DNA of 19,945 nt. Source: an uncultured bacterium. Lineage in GTDB: Bacteria; CSSED10-310; CAZUFC01. A program made the position numbers and the translations under genes. Shown one piece after another: positions 1,008 to 19,945 of the stretch. The notes below the pieces were generated by a model. The model searched no databases, was not told the origin of the DNA, and saw only the letters and a program-made list of their open reading frames with translations. The stretch is taken from NCBI GenBank assembly GCA_964619725.1, contig CAZUFC010000138.1:1-19945 (forward strand). The letters run 5' to 3'. The first letter of the stretch is position 1. Each line of letters begins with the position of its first letter.

Positions 1008-1355
1008 TCAAATAGTCAAAGCGGAAAACAACTCGCTTTTATTGACTATGGTTTTAAATCCTTCAGCGCTGTATGGTTTTTTGTGAACATATAAAGCGCC
1101 GTCGCGCATATACTGGGTGATTTTTTCCAGTCCTAAATTGGAACCGACAATTACGACCGGTATTCCCGGAAATTTACGCTTAACGTTTTTTAATAATTCC
1201 GGCCTTTCATTCATGTCGGGATTCAAAACAATCAAATCATAGTTATTCTTCGGCGATACAGTTTTTTTGACAACATCGATTTTAAATTCCTTTTTCAAAC
1301 GCTCAGATATACTGACTCCCCAACGTTTGTCGTCTGTGATTAAAAGAATTTTCAT
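1008..1355 (-). CDS. Single-domain receiver (CheY-like) protein, atypical (Asn at the phospho-Asp position)
   Basis: MKILLITDD...YDLIVLNPDM...IPVVIVGS...GALYVHKKPYS receiver pattern; AGGGG RBS; 33 bp downstream of the kinase stop. Confidence 0.85.
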   Translation of the reverse strand: MKILLITDDKRWGVSISERLKKEFKIDVVKKTVSPKNNYDLIVLNPDMNERPELLKNVKRKFPGIPVVIVGSNLGLEKITQYMRDGALYVHKKPYSAEGFKTIVNKSELFSALTI

Positions 1356-1388
1356 CTGGTTACCCCTGCTTTACCCACACTGGATTTA

Positions 1389-4300: not shown

Positions 4301-6227
4301 TCATGGCATTGTTTCTTTCTCTTTCTTTCTGAATAAGTCGTTCTTTCCAGATGGCTATGGCGGCCTGATCAGCGAATCGCGTGAGAATCGGCATATCCGA
4401 GCTTAAATCGAAAGCATCTTCCCTGCTGACGTTCGATAGCTGAAGGACTCCGATCGGTTTATTGTCATAGCGAAGAGGAATACTAAGTATTGATTTATCG
4501 TCATGTTCAAGCAGGTCATCAAGCCATTTAGGGTCTGCCTCCAAAACAGTCCCATCCATTAGCTCCAGTTCCGCTTTTCCCGTTTCAGTAAATCTTTTCG
4601 CATAAACGGCCTGATCCCTCTGCAGGCATATTCCGCACAGACCTTCGTCGCTGCGTATTTCAATATCTTTTAATTTTCTTTTAGTCATTCCCTCCACCAT
4701 GCTGACTTTTAATTTACTTTTGCCTTTCACCAATTCCAGTATTCTTACTTCGTCAGCCTGAGGAAAAAGTTCGTAACATTTCTGCGCTACAATTTTCAAC
4801 GTTTCCTGCAAATCCTGTTTAGTTCCGATCGCTTTCGTTATATTTTCCATGTCTTTCATGATCTTGTAGCTTCGAGAAGTATTCTCGATTATTACGGCAT
4901 ATTGTCCCAATGATTCCAATAAGCTTAGCTCCATATCAGTAAAGCAGCTTTTTCCTTCAAACCTGTCTACGGAAAGTACACCCTGAATCTTATTATCTTT
5001 TGCGATCAGGGGGACGCCCATCTGACATCGGACATCTTTATCATCTGCAACCTTGTACCCCCTCTTCTTGATATCCTCTATTCTCGGCTTGCCCTCTTTA
5101 AATATTTCGACGACCAATCTCTTCTTTTCATTGAGAGAAATTTCACACGGACCAGTCTGATAGAGTTCGCAGTCCAATCCACAGCGACAAACCAACGCAT
5201 TCTTATGGGGATCATACATCACGAGACACCCTCTGTCTGCATTCGTCAGTTCATCAGCATGCTGAATAATTCCGGCCAGGATTCTATCATCATGATGATG
5301 CTGCAGTAGGTTTATGTTTTCTCCGACTTTGTTGAATGCCGCAATAATTTCATTGCGGTAACGGGCATTCTGTATCGCCACTGCAGCCTGATTGGCGAGC
5401 GATTCCATCAGCAGCGCTTCTTTTTGTTTAAAGCCTCCTGTACCTTTTTTATGTGCATTCATCGCTCCAAGTATGTTATTTCTGTATATGAGAGGAACCG
5501 ACAGCATTGAGAGCAGATTCAGAGGCGCGAATTCTTCAATGTATTTATGTTTTTTACCCTTGTATTTTTTCCTGATATCAGCAATATTTGCTGTTTCTCC
5601 TGTTGCAGCGACGGTTCCCGTAATTCCTTCCTCGACCTTCATTTCAAATTTTTTCAAAAATTCGTCACTGTATCCTTCAGATGCGGCAATTTCCAGGTCG
5701 GTTCCCTTTTTCAAAATAATCGAGCATGGAAACCAGCCTAAAATATTTTTTATTGTCCTTACAATTTCATCCCGAATTATTTCGTGCGAATAATCAGAAC
5801 AAATTGTTTTTCCGACTTCATCAATCAGAAGCATTTTTCTATTGTAATCTCTTTCATTTAAACATTTTTGAACGGCGAATTCGATTTCACGTCCCGTTAT
5901 CTCCTTTTCCAGAAACGCATAGGCTTCGACTTTGTTTAAATCTTCTGACCAGGCTTCTTCGCCTTGATCAGTCAACAATATTATGGAGACTCCAGGATAT
6001 TCCTTCTTTATCTCACGTGCAGATTCCAGTCCCGTTAAACCTTTTTTTCCATATTTTATATTCATGAGCAAAATATCAAATCCGCCGTCCTGACTTCTTA
6101 TAAGCTTCAGGGCTTCTCGTCCTGAATCAACTTCTTCAACAGAGTAATTATGTTTTAAGAGACGTTCTCTAAAATCATTTTTGCTGTCTTTATAGTCAAT
6201 GATCAATATTTTCGGTCTTTCATACAT
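1389..6227 (-). CDS. Hybrid sensor histidine kinase: atypical REC, about 7 GAF domains, HisKA-like domain, HATPase_c; no obvious transmembrane helix
   Basis: N-terminal KILIID...FDILLMN receiver. Repeated GAF signatures (SMLSVPL..ILGAMN..LANQAAVAIQNAR; MGVPL..GVLSVD; SILSIPL..IGVLQL..ADQAAIAI; FAVIPL..GVLYVDN; SVLAVKL..GVLNL; SELLVPL..IGLL..GRQAAVAINN). C-terminal N/G1/F/G2 boxes LIVNSLEA, DNAGGI, FAPFYSTK, GSGFGL. GGAGG RBS. Confidence 0.93.
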   Translation of the reverse strand: MYERPKILIIDYKDSKNDFRERLLKHNYSVEEVDSGREALKLIRSQDGGFDILLMNIKYGKKGLTGLESAREIKKEYPGVSIILLTDQGEEAWSEDLNKVEAYAFLEKEITGREIEFAVQKCLNERDYNRKMLLIDEVGKTICSDYSHEIIRDEIVRTIKNILGWFPCSIILKKGTDLEIAASEGYSDEFLKKFEMKVEEGITGTVAATGETANIADIRKKYKGKKHKYIEEFAPLNLLSMLSVPLIYRNNILGAMNAHKKGTGGFKQKEALLMESLANQAAVAIQNARYRNEIIAAFNKVGENINLLQHHHDDRILAGIIQHADELTNADRGCLVMYDPHKNALVCRCGLDCELYQTGPCEISLNEKKRLVVEIFKEGKPRIEDIKKRGYKVADDKDVRCQMGVPLIAKDNKIQGVLSVDRFEGKSCFTDMELSLLESLGQYAVIIENTSRSYKIMKDMENITKAIGTKQDLQETLKIVAQKCYELFPQADEVRILELVKGKSKLKVSMVEGMTKRKLKDIEIRSDEGLCGICLQRDQAVYAKRFTETGKAELELMDGTVLEADPKWLDDLLEHDDKSILSIPLRYDNKPIGVLQLSNVSREDAFDLSSDMPILTRFADQAAIAIWKERLIQKERERNNAMKTLARVSANIQSAQCSLNETMYYTLTGVTIKDGLAFNRAALFLYDEKRDVLDGMLGVGSLTAEEAKRKWEDMVDKELNLDKLLSQERPYIDFSDPFNRTIINMEINLSAGDTVLSECAKKRRTFNYHPGRGDAPINVELVENIASEHFAVIPLFTPERQGVLYVDNKFEEKPISDSDMQILKLFGNEAVRAVDRALTLRERDILADLNIILHDKGPEKDYYYAGLETMVRTLEADEGLIFEHVSTGKWRIRSHIVKCFMNNGKKEVFRRIHYDDKGIINSENKKPAFETNRIPNALFRKILCDMKARIINDVPELQDNPDLSNQIVNELKDINEMLSETGFHAIFVPVEKEKEIQAVMMVIRKIGFGKRRFSSHTQNTLEKAAKVLSMAFDKEEYNKNMKLIDDISKKILSQVRDEKSVIDAILDNALEVTGSAYGYVGKGVDPVSFEIISAKGLSDAQKKKIQKDIITPQKLSTTREVYKSEEPYIYYKNPSDAPDFFKGYNELIKQNIQSVLAVKLSSEGRTRGVLNLKSLRKNAFDKHRESMVRLADYAMIALTNAGHFVKADSRIRKQVRRLKNLSTVTAAITSSLELDEVLKTIIEKGANILNADLIIFRYDPINKQFKILIYDSKTVKIEGTDLMSVSKEFVDWMNEKKVRRINDSDRESIFSHCVGLKGGEKIRSELLVPLICEERKIGLLAAVSSKKKAFVGDDEMIFEILGRQAAVAINNTQIKEKSEQEQRSRAYNLAMREYGHWIETRLGAANYYLGKWLKEPQMKEPEKAIFKERFIQIKNNLTSLLKLKKDLAVPMSNIETVPVELHLMTSEIYRIYTDALAANNFMDVNFILEISDELPKISADSDKFLSVIHHLIVNSLEAFKKAPKDEMFIKIRSIEFGDDFIVIEFSDNAGGISPEQEEYIFAPFYSTKGPGSGFGLWFCKHVMRNMRGEISVRNNYGEGVSFFLKLRKCYDS

Positions 6228-6362
6228 TTTTTCATCCTCCTGAACATCAGCGAGCTACAGGCAACAGGGCAATCGCGTTTATAAAATTTAATGTCCAAGT
6301 CATCTCTGTCTTATTCATTACTGAATTAAGCGCTTTTGCGATTCTCACCGTTGTTTTCAAGT

Positions 6363-6393
6363 ATTATGTAACAGGAAAGCAGAAAATAGTCAA
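6363..6393 (-). promoter_or_regulatory. Possible sigma70 promoter of the kinase gene
   Basis: Minus strand TTGACT (6393-6388), 17 bp, then TACATA (6370-6365) preceded by TGn; CATAAT at 19-bp spacing is an alternative -10. Confidence 0.4.
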
Positions 6394-6501
6394 AAAAATC
6401 GTCGCCGTCCGCAGAATGTATAAGAAACCGCAGCGCTTTGCCGGCATTAAAAACCAAATGGCGAATCGAATTTATGGACATGCGCGAATTAAGGGTAATC
6501 G

Positions 6502-9417
6502 TTACCCCTCAGCGATAAAATCCATTATTTCCCCATAATTAGGACCGTCCGGGTCCCAGCCGTTCGGATCGACGATTCTGTCTCTGAGCAACTCGAAACC
6601 TTCTCCGCCCGGCTGATATTTAGGATCATTGTTGAAGGGATTGTAATCGTCTTTTCCGAAGTAATCTTTATCGTATCGGAGTATCTGTGTGCGCCAGGAC
6701 GTTTGCCCGTCAGCGGCTTTTTTGATCCATTGGAAGCCTTCCCATGGATCAAATACTCTGAAACGATCCTGGGGTTTCAAATTCAGATGCTCGGCCCAGG
6801 ATTCAATCCGGAAGTTCCGCATCAGCGGTCTTACGCCGTTTTTCAACGATCCGTCTACTATATCTGCGTTAATTTCAACGTCGTAGGTCATGGAACGATA
6901 TCCGGTGTTGGAGGAACCTATGCTCAGGTAAATGTCGTCGATGAGCATGCATTTGGCATGGACGTAAGTGGGATTGTTCGCATCGTTAATCAGGTGAAAA
7001 ACCAGCAGACGCTCCTGCAAATCCTGCGGCGACATGCCTTGTGATATGTATTCTATGAAGTTTCTTCTCAGATGATAAAGAACGGAATTAGCCAGTTCAG
7101 GGTCTTCGCCTAATTCTCTCGGTATCAAAATGGCGACGAATTTCAGCGGCGGAGCGCCGTCAGTTCCCTGGAGGCGTTCTTTTATGGCCCGGGCTATACT
7201 TTTTTCGTTGTGGGGCGTCTGGTCTCTGTGCATGACGAGGTACTGGTCCTGAAGATAGATATATTTTCTGGCGTTTTCTATGGCTTTGATTCTTGAGTTC
7301 AGACATCCCAATTCTCCTTCATCGCCTACGAAAGAATTGTATGGCGTCAAATGAGGTGAAATCGTGCGCCTTATGCTCACGAAATGCGGTGCGCCGGGTA
7401 TGGGGGCGATCTGTTCCTGATCCAGCGGGGTTTGTGTTCTCCCTTCGGTATTGCTGTCGGGATTGGCGTTCCAGCGTTGTCTGAAGTTTTTTTCTACGTC
7501 GTCTACCGCCGGTCCTTTTATCATGCAATGGATATCATGCCAGCAGCCGCCCTGGCGCCTGGGGTCTTCGTCCAGGTGCTGCGTAGAGTCCCAACGTCCT
7601 CTGGAAAGGTCAATCCCGCCCAGGAAAGCGACCCTTCCATGCCTGTTTTTGATCACCGTCGCCTTCTGATGATGCGAACCCGTGGCTCGACAGAGATTAT
7701 CCCTTATCGCTTCACCTCTTTTTATCGTTCCATCGTTGGCCGTTATCTCCGCATTAATTGCATTCACCGTCGCAGTGTTGTTCGATTTGTGATTCGGTTC
7801 CATCTCCAATTGCCGCCAGAAAAGGCCCCTTACCTTTACGCCCTGCTTTACGGCAGCTTTCAATATTCCCATGATGTGTCCCTTTGGATTAAAGTCCGCT
7901 CCCGGCGGGTCCGTTACTTCTCCCTGTTCATTGAAATCAACTTTGTAATCCGGGTCGGGCAGCGGCGGCAGATGCAGATCAGGACTTAACCGCCAGTTGC
8001 ACAGGTATATGTAATTCTGGGCGGCTTCGTCGAAAGGCAAAGGCGAGCCGTCAGGCAAATCTTCATCCGAAGCATATTCTTCTGTGCTGAAAGTCGCCCT
8101 CAGGGCGCGATACGTTTTCCTGAAGGTCGTCTCGCCGTCGATAAGCGGCACGGCTATGTTGCCCCTGGTATATCGCCGTGGAGGTCCGTCCGGTATAGCG
8201 TTGGGCTGCTCGGCGAACCACTTGTTCAAGTCAAGTATCTGCACGCAAAGGTAATCGTCAGCCATTACCGACCGGGGCAGAGGATTATCCGCATTCGGAG
8301 CGTCCGGCAATACCGCAGCAGTCAAGCCCTCATCCGGAAAACCAAGCGACATTCTCCTGACTCCCAATGGATCGCCGCCCGCCTCAAGCTCTTCACCCAG
8401 CCATAATCCCCACTCATTCGACGCCTTCGGTTCAACCGTTTCAAGCTCCTCCGGTTCCTCCCTTTCCTGCTCCCACAGGAATTCGATGCCTGCAGGACCC
8501 GCCGGCGTCTGGAAAATCAACGGCTCATTGTATTCATCCCTGAAATCTATGATTAATCTTTCAGGCAGCATGCCCGGAAGAGGATGATTCTCTATAGCAT
8601 CCTTATCAGGAACAAGGACATTGCTCAGAAACGGAACAGCCGGCACATCGACAATATCGATCATTCTGCGCAGAAAGAATCCCGGCGAAATTATTTGCCC
8701 GAACTGGTCCGCAATTTTTATGGTTAATCTTTTGAAATTGTGTGCGCCTGCAGGTATGGGAATGGCTGCGTCATGATTATCCGCAGCCTGTCCGATCACC
8801 TGTCCCGCACGAACCAATACAGGCAGCTCTCCCGCCAGGAAAGCATCGATCATGTCCGGCACGTCCTGCGTATGATACGGATCGGGTTTTTCCGTTTTTA
8901 TAAGAGGCTCGATAGAGGCGTTCAATATTGCGGTATCTACGTTTTCATACAGAATGATCGACGGTACGGGTCTTCCTCCTTTTCCCTCTGACGTCTGCGG
9001 CGTTAGGGGCGAACCGTCCCGCAACATCCTTTTCAATTGCTTGATCAATGTCGGCCAAACTTTCAACGCCAGTGTCGGGGCATCAGCCGTCATATCTTCG
9101 CCGGAGCGCTTCTTCACGCCCTCGATCTTCTCTCCTGCCGGCACGTATTGCATGAACCCGTGAGTCATCGCTATCAGGCTGTGCAGGGGAATATTAGACT
9201 CGCCGTAGTCAGGAATGCCCGTTTCGCTGAATGCAATATTGGCCCAGGGATACCTCGCTGAAGCGCTGCCGTCGATCCATATGTCCAACCCCTCGGCGTT
9301 TTCCACCGGAATGCCGAAACTGCGGCCGGTACGGTAATGAACCGCTCCCCCAGCGCCCGGATTGGGCAACGGCATCGATAACTCAAGATTGTGAACATTT
9401 CCTGTTATATAAGCCAT
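6502..9417 (-). CDS. Phospholipase D family protein (two HKD-type motifs, eukaryotic PLD-like flanking motifs) with a ~410-aa N-terminal extension
   Basis: GNIAVPLIDGETTF; IYLCNWRLSPDL; GVKVRGLFW; SHHQKATVIK...AFLGGIDLSRGRWD; WHDIHCMIKGPAV..NFRQRWN; AIENARKYIYLQDQY; YVHAKCMLIDD..SIGSSN..RSMTYDVEI; WAEHL. AGGAG RBS. Confidence 0.92.
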   Translation of the reverse strand: MAYITGNVHNLELSMPLPNPGAGGAVHYRTGRSFGIPVENAEGLDIWIDGSASARYPWANIAFSETGIPDYGESNIPLHSLIAMTHGFMQYVPAGEKIEGVKKRSGEDMTADAPTLALKVWPTLIKQLKRMLRDGSPLTPQTSEGKGGRPVPSIILYENVDTAILNASIEPLIKTEKPDPYHTQDVPDMIDAFLAGELPVLVRAGQVIGQAADNHDAAIPIPAGAHNFKRLTIKIADQFGQIISPGFFLRRMIDIVDVPAVPFLSNVLVPDKDAIENHPLPGMLPERLIIDFRDEYNEPLIFQTPAGPAGIEFLWEQEREEPEELETVEPKASNEWGLWLGEELEAGGDPLGVRRMSLGFPDEGLTAAVLPDAPNADNPLPRSVMADDYLCVQILDLNKWFAEQPNAIPDGPPRRYTRGNIAVPLIDGETTFRKTYRALRATFSTEEYASDEDLPDGSPLPFDEAAQNYIYLCNWRLSPDLHLPPLPDPDYKVDFNEQGEVTDPPGADFNPKGHIMGILKAAVKQGVKVRGLFWRQLEMEPNHKSNNTATVNAINAEITANDGTIKRGEAIRDNLCRATGSHHQKATVIKNRHGRVAFLGGIDLSRGRWDSTQHLDEDPRRQGGCWHDIHCMIKGPAVDDVEKNFRQRWNANPDSNTEGRTQTPLDQEQIAPIPGAPHFVSIRRTISPHLTPYNSFVGDEGELGCLNSRIKAIENARKYIYLQDQYLVMHRDQTPHNEKSIARAIKERLQGTDGAPPLKFVAILIPRELGEDPELANSVLYHLRRNFIEYISQGMSPQDLQERLLVFHLINDANNPTYVHAKCMLIDDIYLSIGSSNTGYRSMTYDVEINADIVDGSLKNGVRPLMRNFRIESWAEHLNLKPQDRFRVFDPWEGFQWIKKAADGQTSWRTQILRYDKDYFGKDDYNPFNNDPKYQPGGEGFELLRDRIVDPNGWDPDGPNYGEIMDFIAEG

Positions 9418-9457
9418 GTTATGCTCCTAAAGAAAAGTGAACATCATCATTCCCGAT

Positions 9458-12400
9458 TCACCTGCCGGTCGAAACGACCGCAACATCGCCGTAAACGACA
9501 TGTCCTGCATTATCCCTGCATTTTATGCGATAACGATAAATTTCACGACGCTGGACATTCTCGTCCCAAAAATCGAACACTCCCATTCTGAGCCAGTCCG
9601 ACACCGGACGAAACGCTCCGGTTTGTCCCCTGGCTTTCAACACGATACACCTCAAGGTTCTATCGGCCGAAGTCCATCGCAACCTGATCCGTGTTCCGTC
9701 AAAACGGCTCTGTATCCATTCCGGCGGTTCAGGAGCGGGTTTCAGCGGCGATGCCCGGACAGCTTTCGAGGCCCTGGAACGATTGCCTGATGCATCTTCA
9801 GCAACCAGGCGATAAAAATAAGTTTTTCCTGGCTCGACATCCTGGTCCTTAAAAACCAAAATTCTACTCCTGTCGTTATCGTCATCCGGCAAATCAGTCA
9901 TCTCCGGTTTAGTTTCACCGCCGACAGTCGTCTCGATTCTTTTCATACGCCTGATTCTTTCATCGCCTTCGGTCAGCAGCTCATCCGTAATTTTCTTCAT
10001 GAGTCTGAAATCTTCGGCTTCCCGCAAAGTTTCCGCCCGGAAAATTCTGTATCCGTCCAGGTCTTTTTCCGTATTGGGCAGGAAGGCTGCTTCAACATAA
10101 CCGATTCCCGGAGCGACGAAAGCCCACTTCGGTCGGCCTGGCGGCGTAACGTCGTGCAGGTCTACGACTACGGCTGTCGAAGCCGGGTCAGCATCAGGGC
10201 CTCTTTCCGGCCAGGGAGCCAGGTTTCCCGCAGGATCAATGGACCGAATCCGGTAAATATAACGATTATCGACCTTTCCGTTTATCCTGTCGCGGTATTT
10301 CATCGGTCCGCTGGAACGGCACACAAGCGGTTTCTCCGTTACTGCATTGAAAGCGCTCACGTTTTCCTTCCGGCTCCCCAGGTCTTGAAGTATAAGACGC
10401 TGATGATCGTCGTCCTGCGATTCATATTGCTCAAAATTATAACCCGCCTGCTTCAACAAATCGCTGTCCAGCGCCCTGTATATCATGTATGAATAAGGCG
10501 CCTGCCCCTGCCATTTGAATTCAAAATAGGAGTGACCGTAATAATCCGCACGCGTCGCATAGTTAACCAGGGGAAATTCCAGTTCCGGTAACGGCGGCGC
10601 CTGGCGATAAACCGCAAATATGCCCGCTACAGGTGATACGCTTCCGTGATTGCCCCATTGATCAATGCTGTTTATTCCGATCTGCGCGTGCCGTTTGGGC
10701 ATTTCCACTGAAGTCGCTAAAGACACTCCGCCGATCGTCGCTCTGTATCTCCGGTGATAACCACCGAATTCCGCCCCCTCCAGCATCAATTCAACCTTGA
10801 TATCCTCTTCGTCCAACCCGCCGGGAACACTTGTCGCGTTTCCTTCATAATCTACAACCAACGGTCCCGGCTCCGCATATGTTCCGGGATCATGATCGAA
10901 ACCTTGCCAATGCGATTCATCGTCAAAGGATTTGTGCGCCGGATGCGCCTGTTTTGCCGGTTCAGCGCCTTCAGCCGGAGCGTGTTTGCCTAAATTCAGC
11001 GTCGCTTTGCCGGGTGCAGGGTTTGTTTTGGGCGCTGCCCGGACCGTCAATACGCTGTTTGCTCCTGATGCGACGGTCAGAATTCTGTAATTAACGCCGT
11101 TCTGCCTGACAAACCCGATATTGACCGTTTCCTGTTCACTCGAAAAATCAGGTCCCGGCATCAGAATATCGGTATCAAGCCGGTATTTTTCACCTCCCAG
11201 ATGCGCCACGTGCGTTATGCTCCCCCGCATGGAATTGAAACGTCCCGGATAATAAAATAATTGAAAGAATTTTAAATCAGGCGCCTGCTTCTGTCGCGAT
11301 ACCGGCCATACCCATTCTATGATGATCCCCGGTTTGCTCTGCACTCCCGGCAGCCTGTTCCTGTTTATCCAGTTCAATGCCGCACTGTTCGCCGTTTCCT
11401 CATCTTCAGGGTCCAGGTAAAGCACCTTCACATTTATGGGAGGCGGCGGAGCGACCGTATCCGAAAGCGTAACCTTCTTCGGACTTGTCGCAGCGCTTAT
11501 CCTGCCGAACAGGTCTATTCCTGATATCCTGTAATAGAAATCTCCGTATCCCGGACCCCGGTCGGTAAAATAATCGTCGTTTATATCGGCATCCTCGGCA
11601 TCCTCCGGCGCCGGCGCCGGAAAAATCGGACGGTCGTCTATGCGGGTTCCTTCGGAATCGCTGACCTGTTCTTTAGTTAAAAACTTGTAAGGTCCTTCCG
11701 GGCCGGCGTCCGCTTCAGTCCTTTCCACATGATAGGAAATATGCCAGGTTGAAGGCGAGAGCATGTCCCGTTCGGAAGGCCTGTCCCACCTCAATACGGC
11801 ATCAGCCTGGCATGCATTCACGACTCCGGCGACTTCTCTTGCCGGCGCTTCTTTTGACTTCACCGTCAGTCCTTCCGGAGGTTCCAGCTCTGGAACAGCC
11901 TGGGGCAGACAATTACGGCAAATCCATATGAAATCGGATGATTGACCGTCAATGCTCCAGTTCCCTTCCAGCTTGTAGTCACGCGGTGCGGCCGCCTCCC
12001 TGTCGACATAATACAAACCGAGAATTCTCGCAAAATAGGGATCAAGCGACGCGCTCAACAGAGAGGCCAGTATTTTGATGTTCATTTTTGCCCCGTCTCC
12101 GCCTTCGGACCTCAACTGCTCGTCGACATCCATCATGGGCATTGTCAACGAACGGAACAACATGGATTTGATATAACCCGTCAAATCATCATATTCATCT
12201 CCCGCATACCGCCGCCTGATATCGTCCATATCTGGAGCGTCAGCAGGCAGTTCGACTGCATCGGGAATGCGGGCAAGCGCGCACGCTTCATCTGTCGGGA
12301 ATCCGTGGTCAAACGGATATGCAGCTCCTGCCATCCTCACCGGAAGCAATAACGGAACAGCCAGATCACGCCAGGGAGAGGTCGAACTCTCCGTCTCGGC

Positions 12401-13270
12401 CAGCCAATACTCCACCGACGTCAAAATCGCATTATTGCCGGTTATTTCCACCCTCTCGACAGCATCAGCGGTCAGCGTAATATCGGTAACTTTACATTCC
12501 ATGCGAGCGTCCCACATTCTCGCCGGATGCAATTCGTCGATTATGCTCTTCTTCTTCAATATATCCTTATCCAGACCGGGATAGGAACTTATTCGCCGCA
12601 ACAGCTCCATCCGTATTTTTTTCAATCTTCTTACCGCATTCATTCTTTCCGACTCGTGAAGCGATTTCAGAGTCATTCGGGGTCCCCGCGCCATGCGTGT
12701 CTTCAAATGCCTTCCCGCTATGATAGTTTCACCATTGGGCAGCCTGAGTTTACTCCTGTCCAGAAAACGTCTTCTCCGAAAATGAAAAACAGGGCGACCC
12801 ACAGACTCATAATCGCTAATAACATCACGATGATAAGCGGCTGCGGTACAATTGCCCTTGTAAGCGAACGTCAGCCTGACCTTCCAGGCTTGTTTACGCA
12901 GCGGATCGACCGGCGAATCCCTGAATTCCATGATCAGCGGTTGTCCGTCAAGCTTGACTCCGTGCTGACCGCACAGTCTGGTCAGTTCAATATCGCTCAG
13001 GTCTTTCCGGTGAAAAACCAGTCCCTTGCCGTAAATGCATTTCAGGCTTTCGGCATGATAGTTCTTGCCTATCATGTAACTCAATTCGCCGTCCGTGTAA
13101 CCCTCTTTCGCGTCATGGTCCCTGTAAAAGAGCCTGAATCCGGCACGCGGAAAGCCCAGTTCCGGCGCAAAATTAATACGGAGATGAACGCCGTCCTGGA
13201 GAATGTTATGATTCAAAGCGCCCAGAGTCAGCATGGACAATAGCGGATCGTTATAATAGGTCGCGCTCAT
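9458..13270 (-). CDS. Large protein with about 5 fibronectin type III-like domains, function unknown
   Basis: 1270-aa ORF with repeated FN3 hallmarks: PPEGLTV..LRW..YHVER..YYRISGIDLFGRIS; DTVAPPPP; YIYRIRSIDPAGN; DVTPPGRP..DLDGYRIFR..GKTYFYRLVAEDASGNRS; IRLRW..YRYRIKCRDNAG. The start overlaps the upstream stop (TGATG) and has an AAGGAG RBS. Confidence 0.85.
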   Translation of the reverse strand: MSATYYNDPLLSMLTLGALNHNILQDGVHLRINFAPELGFPRAGFRLFYRDHDAKEGYTDGELSYMIGKNYHAESLKCIYGKGLVFHRKDLSDIELTRLCGQHGVKLDGQPLIMEFRDSPVDPLRKQAWKVRLTFAYKGNCTAAAYHRDVISDYESVGRPVFHFRRRRFLDRSKLRLPNGETIIAGRHLKTRMARGPRMTLKSLHESERMNAVRRLKKIRMELLRRISSYPGLDKDILKKKSIIDELHPARMWDARMECKVTDITLTADAVERVEITGNNAILTSVEYWLAETESSTSPWRDLAVPLLLPVRMAGAAYPFDHGFPTDEACALARIPDAVELPADAPDMDDIRRRYAGDEYDDLTGYIKSMLFRSLTMPMMDVDEQLRSEGGDGAKMNIKILASLLSASLDPYFARILGLYYVDREAAAPRDYKLEGNWSIDGQSSDFIWICRNCLPQAVPELEPPEGLTVKSKEAPAREVAGVVNACQADAVLRWDRPSERDMLSPSTWHISYHVERTEADAGPEGPYKFLTKEQVSDSEGTRIDDRPIFPAPAPEDAEDADINDDYFTDRGPGYGDFYYRISGIDLFGRISAATSPKKVTLSDTVAPPPPINVKVLYLDPEDEETANSAALNWINRNRLPGVQSKPGIIIEWVWPVSRQKQAPDLKFFQLFYYPGRFNSMRGSITHVAHLGGEKYRLDTDILMPGPDFSSEQETVNIGFVRQNGVNYRILTVASGANSVLTVRAAPKTNPAPGKATLNLGKHAPAEGAEPAKQAHPAHKSFDDESHWQGFDHDPGTYAEPGPLVVDYEGNATSVPGGLDEEDIKVELMLEGAEFGGYHRRYRATIGGVSLATSVEMPKRHAQIGINSIDQWGNHGSVSPVAGIFAVYRQAPPLPELEFPLVNYATRADYYGHSYFEFKWQGQAPYSYMIYRALDSDLLKQAGYNFEQYESQDDDHQRLILQDLGSRKENVSAFNAVTEKPLVCRSSGPMKYRDRINGKVDNRYIYRIRSIDPAGNLAPWPERGPDADPASTAVVVDLHDVTPPGRPKWAFVAPGIGYVEAAFLPNTEKDLDGYRIFRAETLREAEDFRLMKKITDELLTEGDERIRRMKRIETTVGGETKPEMTDLPDDDNDRSRILVFKDQDVEPGKTYFYRLVAEDASGNRSRASKAVRASPLKPAPEPPEWIQSRFDGTRIRLRWTSADRTLRCIVLKARGQTGAFRPVSDWLRMGVFDFWDENVQRREIYRYRIKCRDNAGHVVYGDVAVVSTGR

Positions 13271-16200
13271 CAGTCAATCTCCTTTTCCGGAGTTTCGGTC
13301 AGCCGGAAGCGGAGATTCGCTTCCAGGTCATCTTCAACCCCTTTAATCTTAAGGTCACGTTCGCCGTCGACGTCCGTCATCCTGTAAATGAATTTCATTC
13401 TGTATGAACCTTGCGGCAAATCGCCCACACGATTGTTGCCTCCGACCGTCACAACGGGGATAATGAAGCACCGCGTTTCGTCCGCTGTCCGCACCGCACG
13501 GCAATTCACCGTCTGCCAGACGTTCATGGAGAATTCTCGTCCCCGGAGACTGACCGTGCGTCTTACCAGGCGCTTCAGCTTGAATGAAACTCGCTTCCGG
13601 TTGAATAAAGGTTCAGGACTCTTAAACAGGAGCATCTTTCGCCGGTATCGTTCATTCGGCATCCTGTCCCATACAGTCGTTATCTCCGGTTTTTCTGCAT
13701 CAGGATCATTCGCCAGGCCCAGATGCTCGAACCATATATTCCGAAATGCCTGGTCCTCGGAAAAAACATCCTCTTCATCAAAACTTTCGGCTTCCGCCAT
13801 AACAGCGTTCAGCAAGCTCTTTTCCATACTCTCCATCACGACAGACCAGGATTTTTTGTCGAAAGCCTCTATGTGATCGTTGAAACTCCCGTAAAGGCTC
13901 GTCGTAAATTGGAATTCGAAAAGGGACTTCCGGAGTTTGTCGCCGTATAACTTTACCTGGTATTGCGTTGCCGGCTGTATCAGTGCGCTGATCCTTATCC
14001 TGTCGTTGGAGGGTATCTTTGTCAGATCGAGCTGCATACAATCAGCCTCAGACAATGTATCAACATAAATCTCATTTTCAGGCGTCAATGCCGGGTGTTC
14101 GCTTTTTTCCAGGTATCTTTCCGCGTCGACTTCCCTTCCGTCCATGTCGAACACCCTGGCGTGCAATCCTTCCCCCGCTTTTCTATACATCGCCTCCACA
14201 TAAATCCTGTTGAAAGAAACCTGAAGATCGTGGTTCGGATAAACCGGAACAGCGCCGTCAGCAGGATACGTCCACTCAACGTAAGGAGAAATATCCGCCG
14301 GCGGACCGCTTGTACGTATCTCGAAAGTTTCTTCCCGTGTAGGCGTCGAAGCGTGAGGAGGTCCGTTAATGTCGTCAGCATCATTGAAGATGTCGGCCCG
14401 GTGTTTAATTCTTATTTTGTATATCGAATTCGGTTCGTGAATCAGGCAGGAACCTGTCGGCTCTTCGAGGTTCTCTTCTGATGCCGCCTTATCCAGTAAG
14501 GCCAGTTTCCTTCCCAGGGCAACTCGCATTTCTTCCTGCTTCTCCTCGGCCCTGATTCGAGATAACGGCATATAACACAATTCATACAGGCTGGGGCGTT
14601 CAAAAACATGATCGATCTTTTCGACAGTCGGCAAAAGCGACCTGAACCACAAAATAACGTTGTCGAATTCTTTGTCCTCCAGTTTTACTTCAAACTCGTG
14701 CCTGGTTATTTCATAGTTATGCACGACATTTTTGCCCAACCTCAGCAAAAGTATGCCGGACTGGTATTTCGTGTCGAAAATGATATGTCCCGACAACATG
14801 TTGCTGAGCGGCACTTCGATCCTTACGCCGCAGATGTTTTGTCTGCAGAATTCCGCTTCCGGGCGGTTCATTGCCAGCAATTCCGTCAGCAACAGGTATT
14901 TACCTGTTTGCCGAATTCGGGGGTCTGCCTCTCTGACTTCCATCGGGTTAATTGCGGAGAAGGGGAAAATCTGTTCGTTGACCAGACCTGACCCCTCGTA
15001 AGGAAACGCCCGGAAGGTCGATTTCAAGCCGTCGTCCGTTTCATGATTCAACGTGGGGTCGTATGCATCGCTTTCATATTCGTCAAACCGGATGCAGACA
15101 GGTTCTGCAGAAACTTCTTCCCCGCAGGGATAAGCCGGGTAAAGATGCAGAAATGAATCTATCCAGGCTGCATCGATCCTGGCTTCCGGCCAACCGACAT
15201 TGCTTAATATCGGAGAAAACGGATTAAGCTCAAACAGCGCCAGCCGGTCCGAAGCCGGTCCGTTACTGTCGCCGATCTGAGGAACCCATTCAGCGGTAAG
15301 CGTTTCTTCAAGATTATACTCGCCGGTCTCTTCTCTCAGCTCCGGATCAAGCGGTTCCACAGTTATAAATATTTCTTCAAGGATATACCGGTAAAACTTG
15401 TCTCCGACCTGATCAGGCTCAGGATCATGCGACGGATGCACGGCAGGTTCCCATTCAGCCGCCATGGGCGTTCGGAAAGCGATTATAATGCGTCCGTCCA
15501 TGGGAAGTTCGGCAGCAGGGTCATATTGTTCCGTCCTGGAATATACTCTTTCAGAATAGCCGATAAGCGAACTTTCCAGGCTCATGTTTTCGACCAGGGG
15601 ATTCAGCGGTTCCGGCAGTCCTTCCGCATCGCCCCAATTAAGTTCCACGTCCACTTTAACGTCGGGCAGCGGCCAGGGCAATCCCAGGGTAGCCCTCACC
15701 ATACCCTTGAGTTTAAAAGGTTCTGGTCCCTGCGCTGCCAGAGAGGCATGCAATCCCAGTCCAAAACCGAAGCCCCATATTTTAAAGCTCAATTCACCAT
15801 GCGCCGTGACCTGGCCGAAAAGAAAGAAGGGTTCGCTCGAAAGCGCTGCGTCGAAAGCAAACCAGGCTGCGATCACAACGCGCACAGGCCCCAGTTTCCA
15901 CCGTTCGTCAAAACCCATTTTACCGCCTGCGGCAAATGATATGCCTGATAGTTGCAGATCGCCCAGTTTCAATCCCGCTCCGTCCAGCATTAAATAGGCT
16001 TCCCAGCCGCTCAACTTCAATACCTTGCTTCTTATCCGCTTTTCCGGCGGCGCATAACGGCCCGCGTAAATATGCCAGTTTGATGATGAGTCCGCATCGA
16101 AATAAACCTCGGCATCAGCATGCATATCGAATAATATGCCGCTTTCCGGGATGCGATAATCGAATTCGATGCTCAACTGGAACAAACCGTCGTCAAAATC

Positions 16201-18336
16201 GATCAGCAACAAAGCCGTCAATGCCGCTTCACTGTTGGAGTCTTTGAATCCGGGCATGGGTTTCAGCAGATTGGCCTTGGCCGCAATGATGAATTCGTAA
16301 CCCGGAATCGTCAGCATAACGACCCCTTTCAGGTTCAACGTCCAACCCGTGTCAAACGAAGTGCCTACGGTCATTCCCAGTCCGAAAGCATAATTGTCCG
16401 GCAAAGGCGTCCATTTAACGGGATGCAGCACGTCGAAAGCCCCCTGACCGGGAGAAGGCTTGTACCAGTGATGATACCAGTTGAAATCATCGCCGTGATC
16501 GCCGGTTATCAGCTTGTTAGGCGCAACGTTGATCCCGGCCAGTCCGCAAAAACCGTAAATGCTGGACGCTCCTATAAAGGGAATTCCCGATGGAAAACCG
16601 ATGTCCAGGGCCAGGTAAAAAAACTTCTCGCCGGCAAATTCTCCGAACATGATATTGGCCTGACCGCTGATTTTCCAGGCAATTATGTCCACCCCTATAC
16701 GGCCCCGATATATCACGGGCGAATCGTCCGCCATACCGTAAGGGTCCGGCGCCGTCGTCATTCCCACAAAACCCTCCACGGAAATGATCTCGGCTATGGT
16801 GAATTGAAGCCCTATGCCGTCGAATTCAACATAAGGGTCGCCGCTGCCGCCGAAATATATTTTTAATCCCGATACCGACGTTCCCGCAGGAATCCCTTCG
16901 ATCAACTTCACGCCGGCATCCAGTCCGATCCAATAACCGTCGTCAGCCTGACCGAATCCATAACGGCTCACCGTTATTTCGCACGGACCCAGGCGATGAC
17001 TTATCTCTTCGCTCAATGTTATCCATACGCCCAGAGGCAGTATAACCTCAAATTCCGGCGTTATCTGAAAAACCAGCTCGCGGCATCCCAGCTCAACACC
17101 GCCCAGCAAATCGCCCGTCACGACAGCGGATTCATCGAATTTTAAATCTCCGGTTAATATGATGTCCAGGTATTTCGTCGTTTCATCCCCACGCGACGGA
17201 TCGAAATCATGACGCACGCCTATGCCCGTGATGTTCAAATCGGCAATGTAAAGAGGAAGAACAAGCCCCTCGCCGGGAGTCCCCGCATCAGGCTGCTGCG
17301 AGGACAAACCTGCGCTCCATCCCAGCGCATCATACCCCGAAAGCAGATCATGCGTTTTGTAATGCAAACCGGCATCGAAATACAAAACAGCATCTTCAAA
17401 AAATTCAAGCTTGACCGCAAATTGTATCAGCCCCTTAACCAGAGCGCCGGACTGAAAACCGACGGTGAAGGAGCGCAATGCGAACACGCGGCCTGACATT
17501 GAAGGCGCAGCATCCCACAAAACATAAGTCTCGCCCGAAACACCCGAATCGGATATATACCAGTTCTCCAGGCTGAGCGATACCGGAAGCTCTTCCCATA
17601 ACTGCTTCAAGCCGTACAAGGACAAACTCCGGAAAAATATCCCCTTCCAGCCCGCCGGCAATTCCACTCCCTCAGGAAGAAAATCAGGAACATTATCCGA
17701 TTCGCTGAAATCGAAAACCACGTCCTCCGCCTTTATCACCAGTTGCGTGTCTCCAACAAATACATAATCCAGGTCCAACTGCGGAAGTGAACCGAACGTT
17801 AAGCCGGACTCAGTAGAAATATTCAAACTCGTCGTAAAAACAAACTCGGCATAACTCCCATCAGGAGCCGGATCGAATCCCTTTCCCAGATCATTCGCAT
17901 CCTTCGGAACCGCCGGCGTCAGAATATCCCGCCCGAAACGGAGTTTTACCTCAATCTCAGGAAAATGCACAGCGTAAGGCGGCATCAGCAAATCAAAATC
18001 AACCCGCAAGGAATCGTCGTCCCACTCTTCTTCAATATCGACGACATCCCGGCCCAGCTTCAATTCAACAGGAAAAACGGTCAGCCCGCCGCCGGCATCG
18101 CCCAGAACAAGAAAAACGCCCTTCAGTCCGGGTATTTCAAATGACAATTCACCCTCTACCGCCATTCTCCCCAACACAGTAAAATACCCGTCATGCTCAA
18201 TCGTCCGGAATGTCCGAAATCCAATCCCCTGGAACAACAACGGGTTCATCCCAGGAATATTCGACAAGGGCAGCAAATCAAAAGGCCAGTAAGGCAATAA
18301 ATCAGGATAAGGCACGAAATACTTGTCCGCAACCAT
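13270..18336 (-). CDS. Giant beta-rich protein (~1688 aa), DUF6603-like central region plus a C-terminal Ig-like (SbsA/Big_5-like) segment
   Basis: Start moved from 18438 to ATG 18336 (MVADKYF; upstream AAAGGCGGAG). Long Gly/aromatic amphipathic strand run ending GFGLGLHASLAAQGPEPFKLKG..LPWPLPDVKVDVELNWG, which I recall as DUF6603-like. WTYPADGAVPVYPNHDLQVSFNR resembles the start of an SbsA-type Ig domain. The ORF is certain; the family assignment is tentative. Confidence 0.75.
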   Translation of the reverse strand: MVADKYFVPYPDLLPYWPFDLLPLSNIPGMNPLLFQGIGFRTFRTIEHDGYFTVLGRMAVEGELSFEIPGLKGVFLVLGDAGGGLTVFPVELKLGRDVVDIEEEWDDDSLRVDFDLLMPPYAVHFPEIEVKLRFGRDILTPAVPKDANDLGKGFDPAPDGSYAEFVFTTSLNISTESGLTFGSLPQLDLDYVFVGDTQLVIKAEDVVFDFSESDNVPDFLPEGVELPAGWKGIFFRSLSLYGLKQLWEELPVSLSLENWYISDSGVSGETYVLWDAAPSMSGRVFALRSFTVGFQSGALVKGLIQFAVKLEFFEDAVLYFDAGLHYKTHDLLSGYDALGWSAGLSSQQPDAGTPGEGLVLPLYIADLNITGIGVRHDFDPSRGDETTKYLDIILTGDLKFDESAVVTGDLLGGVELGCRELVFQITPEFEVILPLGVWITLSEEISHRLGPCEITVSRYGFGQADDGYWIGLDAGVKLIEGIPAGTSVSGLKIYFGGSGDPYVEFDGIGLQFTIAEIISVEGFVGMTTAPDPYGMADDSPVIYRGRIGVDIIAWKISGQANIMFGEFAGEKFFYLALDIGFPSGIPFIGASSIYGFCGLAGINVAPNKLITGDHGDDFNWYHHWYKPSPGQGAFDVLHPVKWTPLPDNYAFGLGMTVGTSFDTGWTLNLKGVVMLTIPGYEFIIAAKANLLKPMPGFKDSNSEAALTALLLIDFDDGLFQLSIEFDYRIPESGILFDMHADAEVYFDADSSSNWHIYAGRYAPPEKRIRSKVLKLSGWEAYLMLDGAGLKLGDLQLSGISFAAGGKMGFDERWKLGPVRVVIAAWFAFDAALSSEPFFLFGQVTAHGELSFKIWGFGFGLGLHASLAAQGPEPFKLKGMVRATLGLPWPLPDVKVDVELNWGDAEGLPEPLNPLVENMSLESSLIGYSERVYSRTEQYDPAAELPMDGRIIIAFRTPMAAEWEPAVHPSHDPEPDQVGDKFYRYILEEIFITVEPLDPELREETGEYNLEETLTAEWVPQIGDSNGPASDRLALFELNPFSPILSNVGWPEARIDAAWIDSFLHLYPAYPCGEEVSAEPVCIRFDEYESDAYDPTLNHETDDGLKSTFRAFPYEGSGLVNEQIFPFSAINPMEVREADPRIRQTGKYLLLTELLAMNRPEAEFCRQNICGVRIEVPLSNMLSGHIIFDTKYQSGILLLRLGKNVVHNYEITRHEFEVKLEDKEFDNVILWFRSLLPTVEKIDHVFERPSLYELCYMPLSRIRAEEKQEEMRVALGRKLALLDKAASEENLEEPTGSCLIHEPNSIYKIRIKHRADIFNDADDINGPPHASTPTREETFEIRTSGPPADISPYVEWTYPADGAVPVYPNHDLQVSFNRIYVEAMYRKAGEGLHARVFDMDGREVDAERYLEKSEHPALTPENEIYVDTLSEADCMQLDLTKIPSNDRIRISALIQPATQYQVKLYGDKLRKSLFEFQFTTSLYGSFNDHIEAFDKKSWSVVMESMEKSLLNAVMAEAESFDEEDVFSEDQAFRNIWFEHLGLANDPDAEKPEITTVWDRMPNERYRRKMLLFKSPEPLFNRKRVSFKLKRLVRRTVSLRGREFSMNVWQTVNCRAVRTADETRCFIIPVVTVGGNNRVGDLPQGSYRMKFIYRMTDVDGERDLKIKGVEDDLEANLRFRLTETPEKEID

Positions 18337-18433
18337 GCTCTCCGCCTTTGAATAGAGTAAAAGAAAATGAAAATTGAATCCTGAAAAAAATATCGAAACG
18401 TTCGTAAACCCGAAGACCATCCACTGAAAGAGG

Positions 18434-18648
18434 GGCATTGATCAAAAATGCGTCTTTTGAGGTTACAATTCGAAATAATATCTCATCATTTTGTTTCGAT
18501 TGCGATTGAGACCCCGATGCCGACCCCGATACCGATGCCGATGCCGATACCAATCCAGACCCCGAACTCAAAACCGAACCCGAACCCGATTACTGAAACA
18601 ACCTGTAAAAAGTTTTGAAAGAAGTGTAACCCCGGTCTGATCAGTCCC
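18434..18648. mobile_element. 215-bp MITE-like element A with an 8-bp target-site duplication
   Basis: Ends GGCATTGATCA / TGATCAGTCCC (9 of 11 inverted match). Flanked by direct repeat GAAAGAGG at 18426-18433 and 18649-18656. Subterminal GGTTACA boxes at both ends. No transposase. Confidence 0.75.
18495..18590. repeat. Degenerate hexamer tandem repeat (NCCGAT-like, 16 units) inside element A
   Basis: ttcgat tgcgat tgagac cccgat gccgac cccgat accgat gccgat gccgat accaat ccagac cccgaa ctcaaa accgaa cccgaa cccgat. Confidence 0.9.
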
Positions 18649-18758
18649 GAAAGAGGCTTATTAACCAAAACCCTGAGTAAGTTTCCAGGACAGGAAGGAA
18701 CCGCCGAAGCATTGGGGATAAGAAATAATTCCATTAATCAAATCGGATAGCCTTTTGT

Positions 18759-18787
18759 ACAATGGCATTAATTTCAAAAAAAGGCAA
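18759..18787 (-). promoter_or_regulatory. Weak candidate sigma70 promoter pointing toward the three-gene operon
   Basis: Minus strand TTGCCT (18787-18782), 17 bp, CATTGT (18764-18759) preceded by TGn, in an AT-rich context. Confidence 0.25.
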
Positions 18788-18915
18788 GCCGAATCAGAGA
18801 ATCCTGTTTGCAAAATTTATAATCATTGGCATTGACCGGATATCCGTGTTGCGCGGTTACAATTTGCACGGTCTTTAACAATTGAGAAGCTTTGAAAATC
18901 TTATAAAGACATTAC

Positions 18916-19154
18916 GGGACTGATCAAATAAGGGTTACAAATTGTGATCTCGATATTCAAAAAGAACTTTCGTGCTCAGCGGAGCGGCGCTCGTGCTCGT
19001 AATCGATCGCTTCAAATGATTGTCCTACTTTAATTTCAAACGACTGTACAGATCAGGCCAATGTTTCGATTATGATTACCGCTGCACTGAGCACGAGCAC
19101 AAAGGATTCAAACTCAGAATTGTAACCCTGACATGGCCATTTTTGATCAGCGCC
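18916..19154. mobile_element. 239-bp MITE-like element B, same end family as A, in inverted orientation
   Basis: Left end GGGACTGATCA-N6-GGTTACA. Right end (reverse complement) GGCGCTGATCAAAAATG-N10-GGTTACAATTC, same spacing as the left end of A. Internal imperfect inverted repeat. No target-site duplication seen. Confidence 0.65.
18968..19104. repeat. Imperfect inverted repeat pair (GTGCTC/GAGCAC-rich) inside element B
   Basis: Left arm TCGTGCTCAGCGGAGCGG..CGTAATCGA versus the reverse complement of the right arm, TCGTGCTCAGTGCAGCGGTAATCATAATCGA; about 60-bp spacer. Confidence 0.7.
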
Positions 19155-19278
19155 CCGATACGATACCGATCCCGACGACGATACCGATACCGATTGCGAT
19201 ACCGATACCGACCCCGATCCCGGAACCGATTGCGATACAGACCCCGATACCGATACCGATACCGATTGTGATGGCGAC
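19155..19278. repeat. Hexamer tandem repeat (ACCGAT consensus, about 20 units)
   Basis: cgataccgatcccgacgacgataccgataccgattgcgataccgataccgaccccgat...accgataccgataccgat. Confidence 0.92.
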
Positions 19279-19491
19279 ACAAATTGTCCAAAATTTTGAA
19301 AGAATTCCCGGCTTGATCAGTCCCGATTTTCTGCAAGAATATTTATGAAATATGCGGTAGAGGCCGAAAACAAAGGAAAGAGGGGGCTGAGTATCTGGAT
19401 TAAGACATGCAGGCGGAAATGATTCTAAAAAATTTTTGACCTGTATAAGATTTCATCGAAATAATGAATTTTTGAAAATCCCAGGATGCGT

Positions 19492-19892
19492 CATACCAAT
19501 GAGCAATGATCTTCTTCAGCCCCGGAAGGGCATATGAACTCCTCAAATCTATTATGCGGACGTCAATACCAATGCGCGACGATCCTCTCAAGCGCCGGAG
19601 GGTAATGCTTGCCCCTCGAGTCTATTATGCGAACGGCAACATCAATGAGCGACGATCCTCTCAAGCGCCGGAGGGTCATACTTGCCCCTCAAGTCTATTA
19701 TGCAGACGGCAATACCAATGCGCGATTATCTTCTCAAGCGCCGGAGGATCATGCTTGCCCCTCAAGTCTATTATGCAGACGGCAACATCAATGTGCGAAA
19801 ATCCGCTTAAGCGCAGGAGGAACATACTTCCTACTAAAATTTATTCATGGGACGATAATATCAATCCGCGACGATCCTCTTAAGCGCCGAAG
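19492..19892. repeat. 73-bp tandem repeat array (about 5.5 copies), noncoding
   Basis: The AAGCGC anchor recurs at 19590, 19663, 19736, 19809 and 19882 (degenerate CAGCCC at 19517), an exact 73-bp period. Consensus approx. AATACCAATGCGCGACGATCCTCTCAAGCGCCGGAGGGTCATRCTTGCCCCTCAAGTCTATTATGCAGACGGC. Confidence 0.93.
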
Positions 19893-19945
19893 GCGCGTTA
19901 TGTGAAAGCCTACGGTATCGCTCACAATACCAATATCAAGTTAAT

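Follow-up and report, generated by a model that had tools for sequence, protein, structure and literature searches.

The stretch of DNA analysed here (hereafter, the window) is the entire 19,945-bp contig CAZUFC010000138.1, which belongs to the 9.17-Mb, 344-contig genome bin of an uncultured bacterium (assembly GCA_964619725.1; completeness 90.9 per cent and contamination 6.5 per cent, with no rRNA gene found in the bin). The bin encodes ribosomal protein L31 and lacks L31e, which marks the organism as bacterial, and an archaeal origin was rejected. On its minus strand, three large genes, here called A, B, and C, together span positions 6502–18336 and form the cassette that is the subject of this analysis: they encode a giant all-beta protein, a protein with multiple FN3 domains, and a phospholipase D (PLD), respectively (Table 1). 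A first-pass annotation, made from the sequence alone, had singled out these genes as a candidate for an undescribed system, and the layout that it reported is confirmed: the three genes are co-directional, the stop codon of A overlaps the start codon of B, a short spacer separates B from C, and each gene has a ribosome-binding site. The overlap suggests translational coupling of A and B. Full-length homologues of each of the three genes are numerous, and the genes are therefore real. The possibility that A, B, and C represent one frameshifted gene was considered and rejected; the only similarity between A and B consists of two weak local BLAST matches, via an inserted domain.

Residue numbers of A are counted from the open frame at positions 13270–18438, in which the likely start is M35. 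Placing the start at the ATG at position 18336 is likely because GGAGAG lies just upstream, the database model P0005 has the same length of 1688 amino acids (aa), and the homologues start at the corresponding position. The 34 codons by which the frame extends upstream (18337–18438) are strongly hydrophobic and Phe-rich, and have no counterpart in the N-termini of the listed homologues; if they were translated, A would gain a membrane-anchor-like N-terminus unlike that of any homologue.

Table 1. Features of the three-gene cassette in the window. Residue numbers refer to the protein named in the same row.
Feature	Positions	Strand	Description
Gene A	13270..18336	-	1688 aa; giant all-beta protein; signature gene of the cassette; open frame extends to 18438
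A N-terminal beta-rich region	17119..18336	-	Residues 35-440; conserved among homologues
A conserved core	15049..17121	-	Residues 440-1130; long beta hairpins
DUF6603 Pfam match	15604..15879	-	A residues 854-945; E 5.8e-7; profile positions 358-442 of 502
A C-terminal region	13273..15048	-	Residues 1131-1722; partly conserved motifs; modelled without confidence
A stop/B start overlap (TGATG)	13268..13272	-	AAGGAG upstream of B start
Gene B	9458..13270	-	1270 aa; multi-FN3 protein; constant partner of A
B N-terminal family-defining domain	11906..13270	-	Residues 1-455; beta-sandwich with helical inserts
B FN3-like beta-sandwich array	9461..11905	-	Residues 456-1270
B-C spacer	9418..9457	-	40 bp; contains AGGAG
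Gene C	6502..9417	-	971 aa; putative payload enzyme; N-terminal domain, then eukaryote-type PLD
C N-terminal module	8638..9240	-	About residues 60-260; common to payloads of three other-order cassettes, whose catalytic parts differ
C PLD catalytic region	6718..7857	-	About residues 520-900; family-profile matches to solved PLDs
C first HKD-type motif	7588..7671	-	H582/H583, K585, N591, G600-G601, D603, R608-W609-D610; aligned to human PLD1 motif
C second HKD motif	6907..6960	-	H820, K822, D827, G834-S835-S836-N837; Pfam PLDc_2

The first-pass annotation had reasoned that a carrier-plus-cargo arrangement would be supported if related loci kept the first two genes and varied the third enzyme, and this is the pattern that we observed. 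Scanning one genome per species with a profile of the A core yielded 30 loci (numbered below with the prefix L); in four of them (L007, L016, L021, and L031), the contig stops where B is expected. In all 26 assessable loci, a B-type gene lies in the cassette with A; the gene order is B-x-A in 24 of them (where x denotes the variable third gene) and A-B-x, as in the window, in two (L034 and L035). B genes were assigned by a hidden Markov model of the B N-terminal domain in 23 genome loci and in most metagenome loci, and by BLAST or clustering in the others. In one locus (L018), which contains 200 N, A was seen only by tblastn. Two other loci, L010 and L011, do not count as independent: their B, beta-helix, and A proteins are identical, and their contigs were binned to one Nitrospinota and one Thermodesulfobacteriota genome, which reflects either one contig placed in two bins or a very recent transfer. 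In three loci (L028, L035, and L036), A is spread over two to five consecutive open reading frames (ORFs), which are split genes or decaying copies. By record title, the hosts of the genome loci include Nitrospirales, Chloroflexia, Flavobacteria, Nitrospinota, Acidobacteriota, Alphaproteobacteria, Saprospiraceae, Planctomycetes, Ktedonobacteraceae, Myxococcota, Rokubacteria, Actinomycetota, and Clostridia. Among the alphaproteobacterial hosts is an amoeba endosymbiont, Candidatus Paracaedibacter symbiosus (L015).

A search of metagenome contigs with the B family gave a consistent picture, with A also present in 28 of 40 loci (in L046, as detected by tblastn). Twelve of the 40 loci share the gene order of the window, and 10 of these are complete, with A (~1675 aa), B (~1220 aa), and C (~965 aa) in a row; the other two end before C, and five of the 10 complete loci represent one sequence recovered from different samples. 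In another 17 loci, B is followed by A. The remaining 11 are short contigs, 10 of them with B only and one (L057) with neither gene labelled. In an Agromyces genome, homologues of B and C have adjacent locus tags, and seven pairs of B and C homologues come from contigs of matching length. A and B are obligatorily linked.

The third position, in contrast to the A–B pair, is exchangeable. Among the genome loci, it holds a PLD-type protein in 10 (L007, L008, L009, L013, L023, L024, L026, and L027, with weaker matches in L034 and L035), a right-handed beta-helix protein in five (L010, L011, L015, L017, and L029, the last of which additionally has OmpA and Chlamydia-PMP repeats), and a protein with PhoD-like and DUF2272 domains in one (L033); in nine loci, the protein in the slot has no match above the Pfam cut-off. 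The single slot of L026 (positions 5738–8877) contains two tandem PLD payload paralogues of 513 and 514 aa. In at least 10 of the 17 metagenome loci in which B precedes A, one or two ORFs of ~160–190 aa lie between the two genes and belong to a family that we call S. The S proteins, which come from soil and peat loci (L051–L069; for example, L052:7062-7574 and L056:13712-14206, 14416-16620, and 16633-17145), are rich in Ala, Leu, Ser, and Gln, and are probably helical. The slot of L056 and L058 also contains a pro-kumamolisin (S53) protease of 734 aa that ends in an S domain.

The fusion of an S domain to a protease makes this domain look like a docking or payload module, and a candidate counterpart is found in the N-terminal part of C. 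Using hhalign, we set a C-family profile built from residues 1–330 against residues 1–350 of each of 25 other payloads, and against 51 unrelated proteins that served as controls (after four payload proteins had been removed from a random draw of 55). The C module matches an unknown enzyme (L019; E 1.8e-5), a beta-helix protein (L015; 5.2e-4), and another PLD (L009; 3.6e-3), whereas the best of the 51 controls reaches E 0.038. All three alignments cover the same region and contain four colinear motifs. A second search round with the module added no members. The S and C families, compared directly (hhalign E 0.62), are unrelated. We also considered a universal payload adaptor and rejected it: phmmer with the C N-terminus found nothing among the payloads, and the profile comparison found only three of the 25. 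Taken together, the shared C module and the S-domain fusion suggest that payloads may carry docking modules.

Protein A is the signature component of the cassette. The first-pass annotation had described it as DUF6603-like: the match to DUF6603 (PF20248) is above the cut-off (28.9 versus 27 bits), but it is marginal and limited to residues 854–945. The core, which can be aligned over ~690 aa, is 25–30 per cent identical to 23 other core sequences, and has a conserved Gly-rich hydrophobic hairpin near residues 604–640; among homologues, Kyte–Doolittle hydropathy peaks at ~2.0 at residues ~600–650. The C-terminal region is strongly similar only to relatives with the A-B-C order (E ~1e-57), its other matches being weak (E ~1e-6). 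An AlphaFold model of residues 35–1234, based on 43 sequences, is predicted to be all-beta with long hairpins and has a mean pLDDT of 67.7. Within it, pLDDT in the core, taken in 10-residue blocks, is mostly 79–93 with short dips to 41–65, and most of the core blocks at about residues 500–900 fall in the upper of these ranges; in the N-terminal region pLDDT is mostly 62–88 (model residues 41–100 and 121–330), dipping to 42–48 at 101–120, and in the C-terminal region it is below 50 at model residues 1073–1198. The core profile has no relative among PDB sequences, and the predicted fold is effectively unmatched: the best PDB structures (SlpA, LptD, usher pores, ApoB100, and teneurin/Tc shells) all have TM-scores of ≤0.25, and viral models have TM-scores of ≤0.20. 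In the Protein Atlas, A led only to unnamed clusters or weak leads (scores of 0.91 and 0.90), as did the N-terminal domain of B (≤0.88). Membership of A among lipid conduits of the AsmA/TamB/LptD type is not supported: A has no Pfam match to such proteins, and its TM-scores to the LptD fold are ≤0.20.

That B is a multi-FN3 protein, as had been proposed, is supported, although Pfam finds no match on B itself. The B family profile matches titin FN3 (E 8e-8), a B homologue (P0012) has a Pfam fn3 match (E 3.4e-6), and Foldseek pairs the B model with FN3 arrays of titin, cytokine receptors, LAR, and the Aureispira grappling-hook protein (probability 1.0; E 1e-12 to 1e-8). The AlphaFold model, computed from 40 sequences for residues 1–1170 (the last ~100 residues lie outside it), has a pLDDT of 82.1 and consists of an N-terminal domain with a series of FN3-like domains behind it. 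In 10-residue blocks, pLDDT of the N-terminal domain is mostly 80–94, falling to 35–70 over roughly residues 160–260 and 370–400. Some distant relatives of B and A carry LamG or ConA-like domains, according to precomputed Pfam annotations. A complex prediction for A residues 35–440 (with an alignment) and B residues 1–455 (as a single sequence only) scored 0.00, which is evidence neither for nor against an interaction.

Protein C had been called a PLD with two HKD motifs of the type found in eukaryotes and in Tle5 effectors, and the profile comparisons bear this out. Pfam recognizes PLDc_2 (E 6.4e-11) and PLDc (E 2.3e-5) on C, and the C family profile matches plant PLD alpha 1 (E 3.5e-25), human PLD1 (5.9e-22), the Pseudomonas aeruginosa structure 7v53 (6e-20), and also PLD2. 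All 18 of the 18 family members that were aligned have the residues listed in Table 1 for both motifs, among them H583/K585/N591 and H820/K822/N837; the first HKD motif has lost conservation of its acidic residue. C is thus predicted to be a catalytically intact PLD of the eukaryotic type. Its first 520 residues match no PDB chain, PldA included, and C2, PX, and PH domains are absent from C. The NCBIfam models of cardiolipin synthases (Cls/ClsB) score 37.6 bits against a cut-off of 290 and 17.2 bits against a cut-off of 281, and we rejected that assignment.

Genes of the A family are widespread and unevenly distributed. The A-core profile collects 2297 representative clusters at E ≤ 1e-3, a number that falls to 1135 at E ≤ 1e-30, and the sizes of the A-family proteins range from 821 to 3279 aa among 150 listed. 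The gene is present in one of 14 genomes of the phylum to which the window belongs, two of 41 relatives, and seven of 301 sampled genomes in the phylum of genome G041; its distribution is patchy and accessory. The window proteins are 32–45 per cent identical to their nearest same-order relatives, which look high-GC by amino-acid composition, and these observations fit an old horizontal acquisition of the cassette. A full-text search of articles found no paper that names DUF6603, PF20248, or IPR046538, and a keyword search brought up no relevant title among the 10 listed.

Positions 1–6227 of the contig are occupied by a 1612-aa gene, whose product combines a response-regulator domain, five GAF domains, and a histidine kinase, and by two response-regulator genes. 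In agreement with the first-pass annotation, the window contains no VgrG, PAAR, Hcp, or tail gene, and neither does it contain a transporter gene; between C and the kinase gene there is no ORF of ≥60 aa, the largest having 51 aa. The GC content of the cassette is 51.2 per cent, that of the kinase flank 39.6 per cent, and that of 10-kb windows of the genome 47.2 ± 2.1 per cent, so that the flank falls below the first percentile (41.8 per cent) of the latter. This contrast between flank and cassette indicates that the contig is either mosaic or mis-binned. Scans for promoters (33 versus 28.5 expected) and terminators (22 versus 21.7 expected) gave results at the level of chance, and the window has no Rfam match. 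The 1.5 kb upstream of A (18440–19945) is repeat-rich and without a long ORF or an Rfam family: it includes a 73-bp tandem repeat in 5.5 copies (19493–19893) and arrays of CCGATA-type hexamers at 19155–19266 and 18510–18565, each of which adjoins a similar segment of ~40 nt. DNA of the window is present in four sequencing runs of one microbial-mat study, and no RNA run is listed for it.

Among the flanks of related cassettes, only two kinds of genes recur, and neither encodes a transporter, a lysis, tail, or immunity protein (in the case of immunity genes, the survey of related loci covered ORFs of ≥150 aa). A NUDIX protein of 440–560 aa is encoded directly upstream of B in L024 (1386–2702), L036 (316–1725), and L028 (311–1981); the first two were checked with Pfam, and the third, on the opposite strand, was assigned by clustering only. 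An FGE-sulfatase/trypsin gene is represented by three proteins in two loci, grouped by clustering (L020, which was Pfam-checked, and L035). In the Acidimicrobiia locus L034 (1121–3658), a gene upstream of A encodes a protein of 845 aa that contains 11 hemopexin repeats and weakly matches a reprolysin-like zinc peptidase.

The locus in the window is best explained as a single copy of a module that is self-contained and has spread horizontally. As to what this module does, the reading that we favour, with a probability of about 0.45, is a carrier-plus-payload device of a new kind, by which envelope-degrading enzymes would reach a target. We infer that A and B would assemble into a large particle, of which A would be the body and B an arm that attaches by its conserved N-terminal domain and reaches the target through its FN3 spacers, and that this particle would bind the payload enzyme and carry or present it to a foreign or extracytoplasmic surface. 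In the window copy, the PLD may cleave membrane phospholipids of the target cell, and on the strength of this proposed toxicity the module would be an antagonistic or predatory enzyme-delivery device, in which payloads are swapped like those of polymorphic toxins. PLD, beta-helix, PhoD-like, and S53-type proteins are typical of enzymes that act on envelopes or extracellularly. These payload classes, together with the LamG/ConA-type modules of distant A and B relatives, favour action on foreign or external surfaces. The absence of a signal peptide from the components of the cassette implies that export would be non-classical, e.g. through lysis or by an unknown route. A fuller version of this reading is more doubtful: in it, the cassette is a new delivery machine unrelated to toxin complex (Tc), type VI secretion system (T6SS), and contractile systems, has a beta-sheet body and an FN3 arm, is loaded with one exchangeable enzyme via adaptor modules (the PLD N-terminal module or the S domain), delivers that enzyme to other cells, and has been spread by gene transfer across more than 10 bacterial phyla.

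Several observations weigh against carriage and delivery of a payload. As the first-pass annotation had noted, no component has an N-terminal signal peptide: a Kyte–Doolittle scan found no hydrophobic N-terminus on C, on B, or on A from M35, and the N-termini of homologues, read by eye, likewise lack one. No secretion, lysis, or immunity gene was found linked to the cassette, and a self-toxic PLD that lacks an immunity gene would have to be accounted for separately, for instance by latency or by specificity for the target. The absence of export signals and of an immunity gene also leaves some probability with explanations that involve defence, scavenging, or lipid handling. The model of A is of moderate confidence and its fold matches nothing; nine payloads belong to no recognizable family; the C module was recovered in just three of the 25 other payloads, and the scores of all 25 taken together are no higher than those of the controls (Mann–Whitney p 0.14). 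Finally, given the contamination of the bin and the GC contrast within the contig, the window may be mis-binned.

If the cassette instead acted inside the cell that produces it, it could be an intracellular conflict system (e.g. anti-phage abortive infection), in which A and B serve as sensor or scaffold, the third protein is a suicide effector, and the PLD destroys the cell's own membrane. The patchy, horizontally spread distribution, the swappable effector slot, and the lack of signal peptides would suit such a system, as would the small helical proteins that fill the slot in many loci and the NUDIX (L024, L036, and L028) and FGE-sulfatase/trypsin (L020 and L035) genes that flank a few cassettes. 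We nevertheless regard it as unlikely, given that PADLOC matches none of the three proteins, that the proteins lack NTPase, nuclease, and other customary sensor domains, that beta-helix/OmpA/PMP, PhoD-like, and pro-domain sedolisin payloads would be unusual as suicide effectors, and that the FN3 arrays and LamG-type tips point to the binding of external targets. The missing immunity gene is to be expected if the enzyme is not a toxin at all, and A and B may then form a degradative or nutrient-scavenging scaffold, in principle like a cellulosome, that holds exchangeable hydrolases at the cell surface or in released particles and serves feeding rather than killing. Hosts that are mostly large-genome environmental bacteria, and payload classes that hydrolyse lipids, phosphoesters, proteins, and probably glycans, agree with this explanation. 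It is, however, quite unlikely: no export signal or anchoring domain was found in the cassette, each cassette has one payload and not many enzymes on one scaffold, one copy resides in the amoeba endosymbiont Candidatus Paracaedibacter symbiosus (L015), and the PLD is of the type reported for T6SS effectors (PMC9550806).

Membrane remodelling was one of the two options offered by the first-pass annotation, and it is the weaker of them because the slot also holds non-lipid enzymes. Its most explicit form is an envelope-biogenesis or lipid-handling machine, in which A is an elongated conduit or belt of beta-sheet for lipids, while the PLD remodels the cell's own phospholipids. The weak top fold matches of A are indeed to curved beta-sheets that deal with lipids or membranes (LptD, ApoB100, chorein-N, SlpA, and ushers), and cardiolipin synthases belong to the PLD superfamily; yet none of these fold matches exceeds a TM-score of 0.25, the cardiolipin-synthase models score far below their cut-offs, the cassette occurs in single- and double-membrane lineages alike, and a housekeeping role is difficult to reconcile with the presence of the cassette in one of 14 phylum genomes. 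With the variety of enzymes in the slot added to these points, we consider lipid handling improbable. That the three genes are unrelated neighbours has a nearly negligible probability: nothing speaks for it beyond the absence of direct interaction data, and it conflicts with the synteny across many phyla, the exact gene order in 10 metagenome loci, and the stop–start overlap of A and B.

Whichever explanation applies, the A family, with ~2300 clusters in many phyla, is always paired with B and an exchangeable enzyme, and has no known fold or relative. Should A and B be a carrier, the cassette would represent a new bacterial route of enzyme delivery and could yield lipases, proteases, and glycan-active enzymes from a new source; as a defence or scavenging device, it would still be new in its modular architecture. 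The PLD-bearing copy is a good entry point, with an enzyme activity that is clear and assayable, and close relatives occur in named, presumably culturable Actinomycetota (Agromyces and Microbacterium).

The cassette matches no characterised system in PADLOC, Pfam, NCBIfam, the PDB (by sequence and by fold), or the literature, as the first-pass annotation had anticipated. Its formal Pfam relative, DUF6603, offers little guidance: A lies just above the gathering cut-off, the match spans ~90 of its residues, and the function of the family is undescribed. PADLOC returned no family for A, B, or C at E ≤ 0.01, the PHROGs collection nothing but a match with E 0.004 on the FN3 stretch, and the genome lacks the Phage_sheath_1 domain (PF04984) of contractile injection systems and tailocins.

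Among individual components, C shares the eukaryote-type two-HKD PLD with the T6SS Tle5 effectors PldA and PldB of P. aeruginosa; the structure 7v53, matched by the C family profile, is a 1099-aa entry titled 'Phospholipase D'. PldA is reported to cleave membrane glycerophospholipids and to be neutralised by an immunity protein (PMC9550806). A role of C as a T6SS effector was rejected on the grounds that VgrG, Hcp, and PAAR are absent from the window and TssC (PF05943) from the 90.9 per cent complete genome. An immunity gene of the kind that adjoins Tle5 genes was not seen beside C, where the largest ORF before the kinase gene has 51 aa. With eukaryotic PLDs (PLD alpha 1, PLD1, and PLD2), C has in common the context of the first motif (GG-x-D-L...G-R-W-D), but it differs from them in lacking C2, PX, and PH domains, in having a bacterial N-terminal domain of unknown fold, and in the unconserved acidic residue of the first motif. 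B is comparable to FN3/Ig-array arms such as phage receptor-binding fibres and GhpA of Aureispira, in that its model matches FN3 arrays, fragments of GhpA among them (9fly, 9flp, and 9flw; probability 1.0). This match reflects a generic FN3 repeat (TM-score of 0.10–0.15 over the query), and B differs in that it lacks a signal peptide and has an N-terminal domain without a known relative.

At the level of whole systems, modular defence systems of the CBASS type combine a constant core with a swappable effector gene. The cassette shares with them this organisation and the patchy distribution, but it has no cyclase, NTPase, or nuclease domains and has payloads of other classes. The description of the locus as toxin-complex-like, the other option of the first-pass annotation, holds as an organisational analogy only. 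Membership was rejected, with the RHS/YD, SpvB, and TcA-type Pfam domains absent from A, B, and C, and with Foldseek probabilities of ≤0.20 and TM-scores of ≤0.10 for A against TcB–TcC and teneurin shells. Like the Tc (ABC) toxins of Photorhabdus, Yersinia, and relatives, the cassette comprises three large genes that run in one direction and encode no signal peptides, its enzymatic part varies, and one giant component possibly forms a beta-shell; in Tc toxins, however, the payload is the C-terminus of the shell protein itself, whereas in the cassette it is a separate protein.

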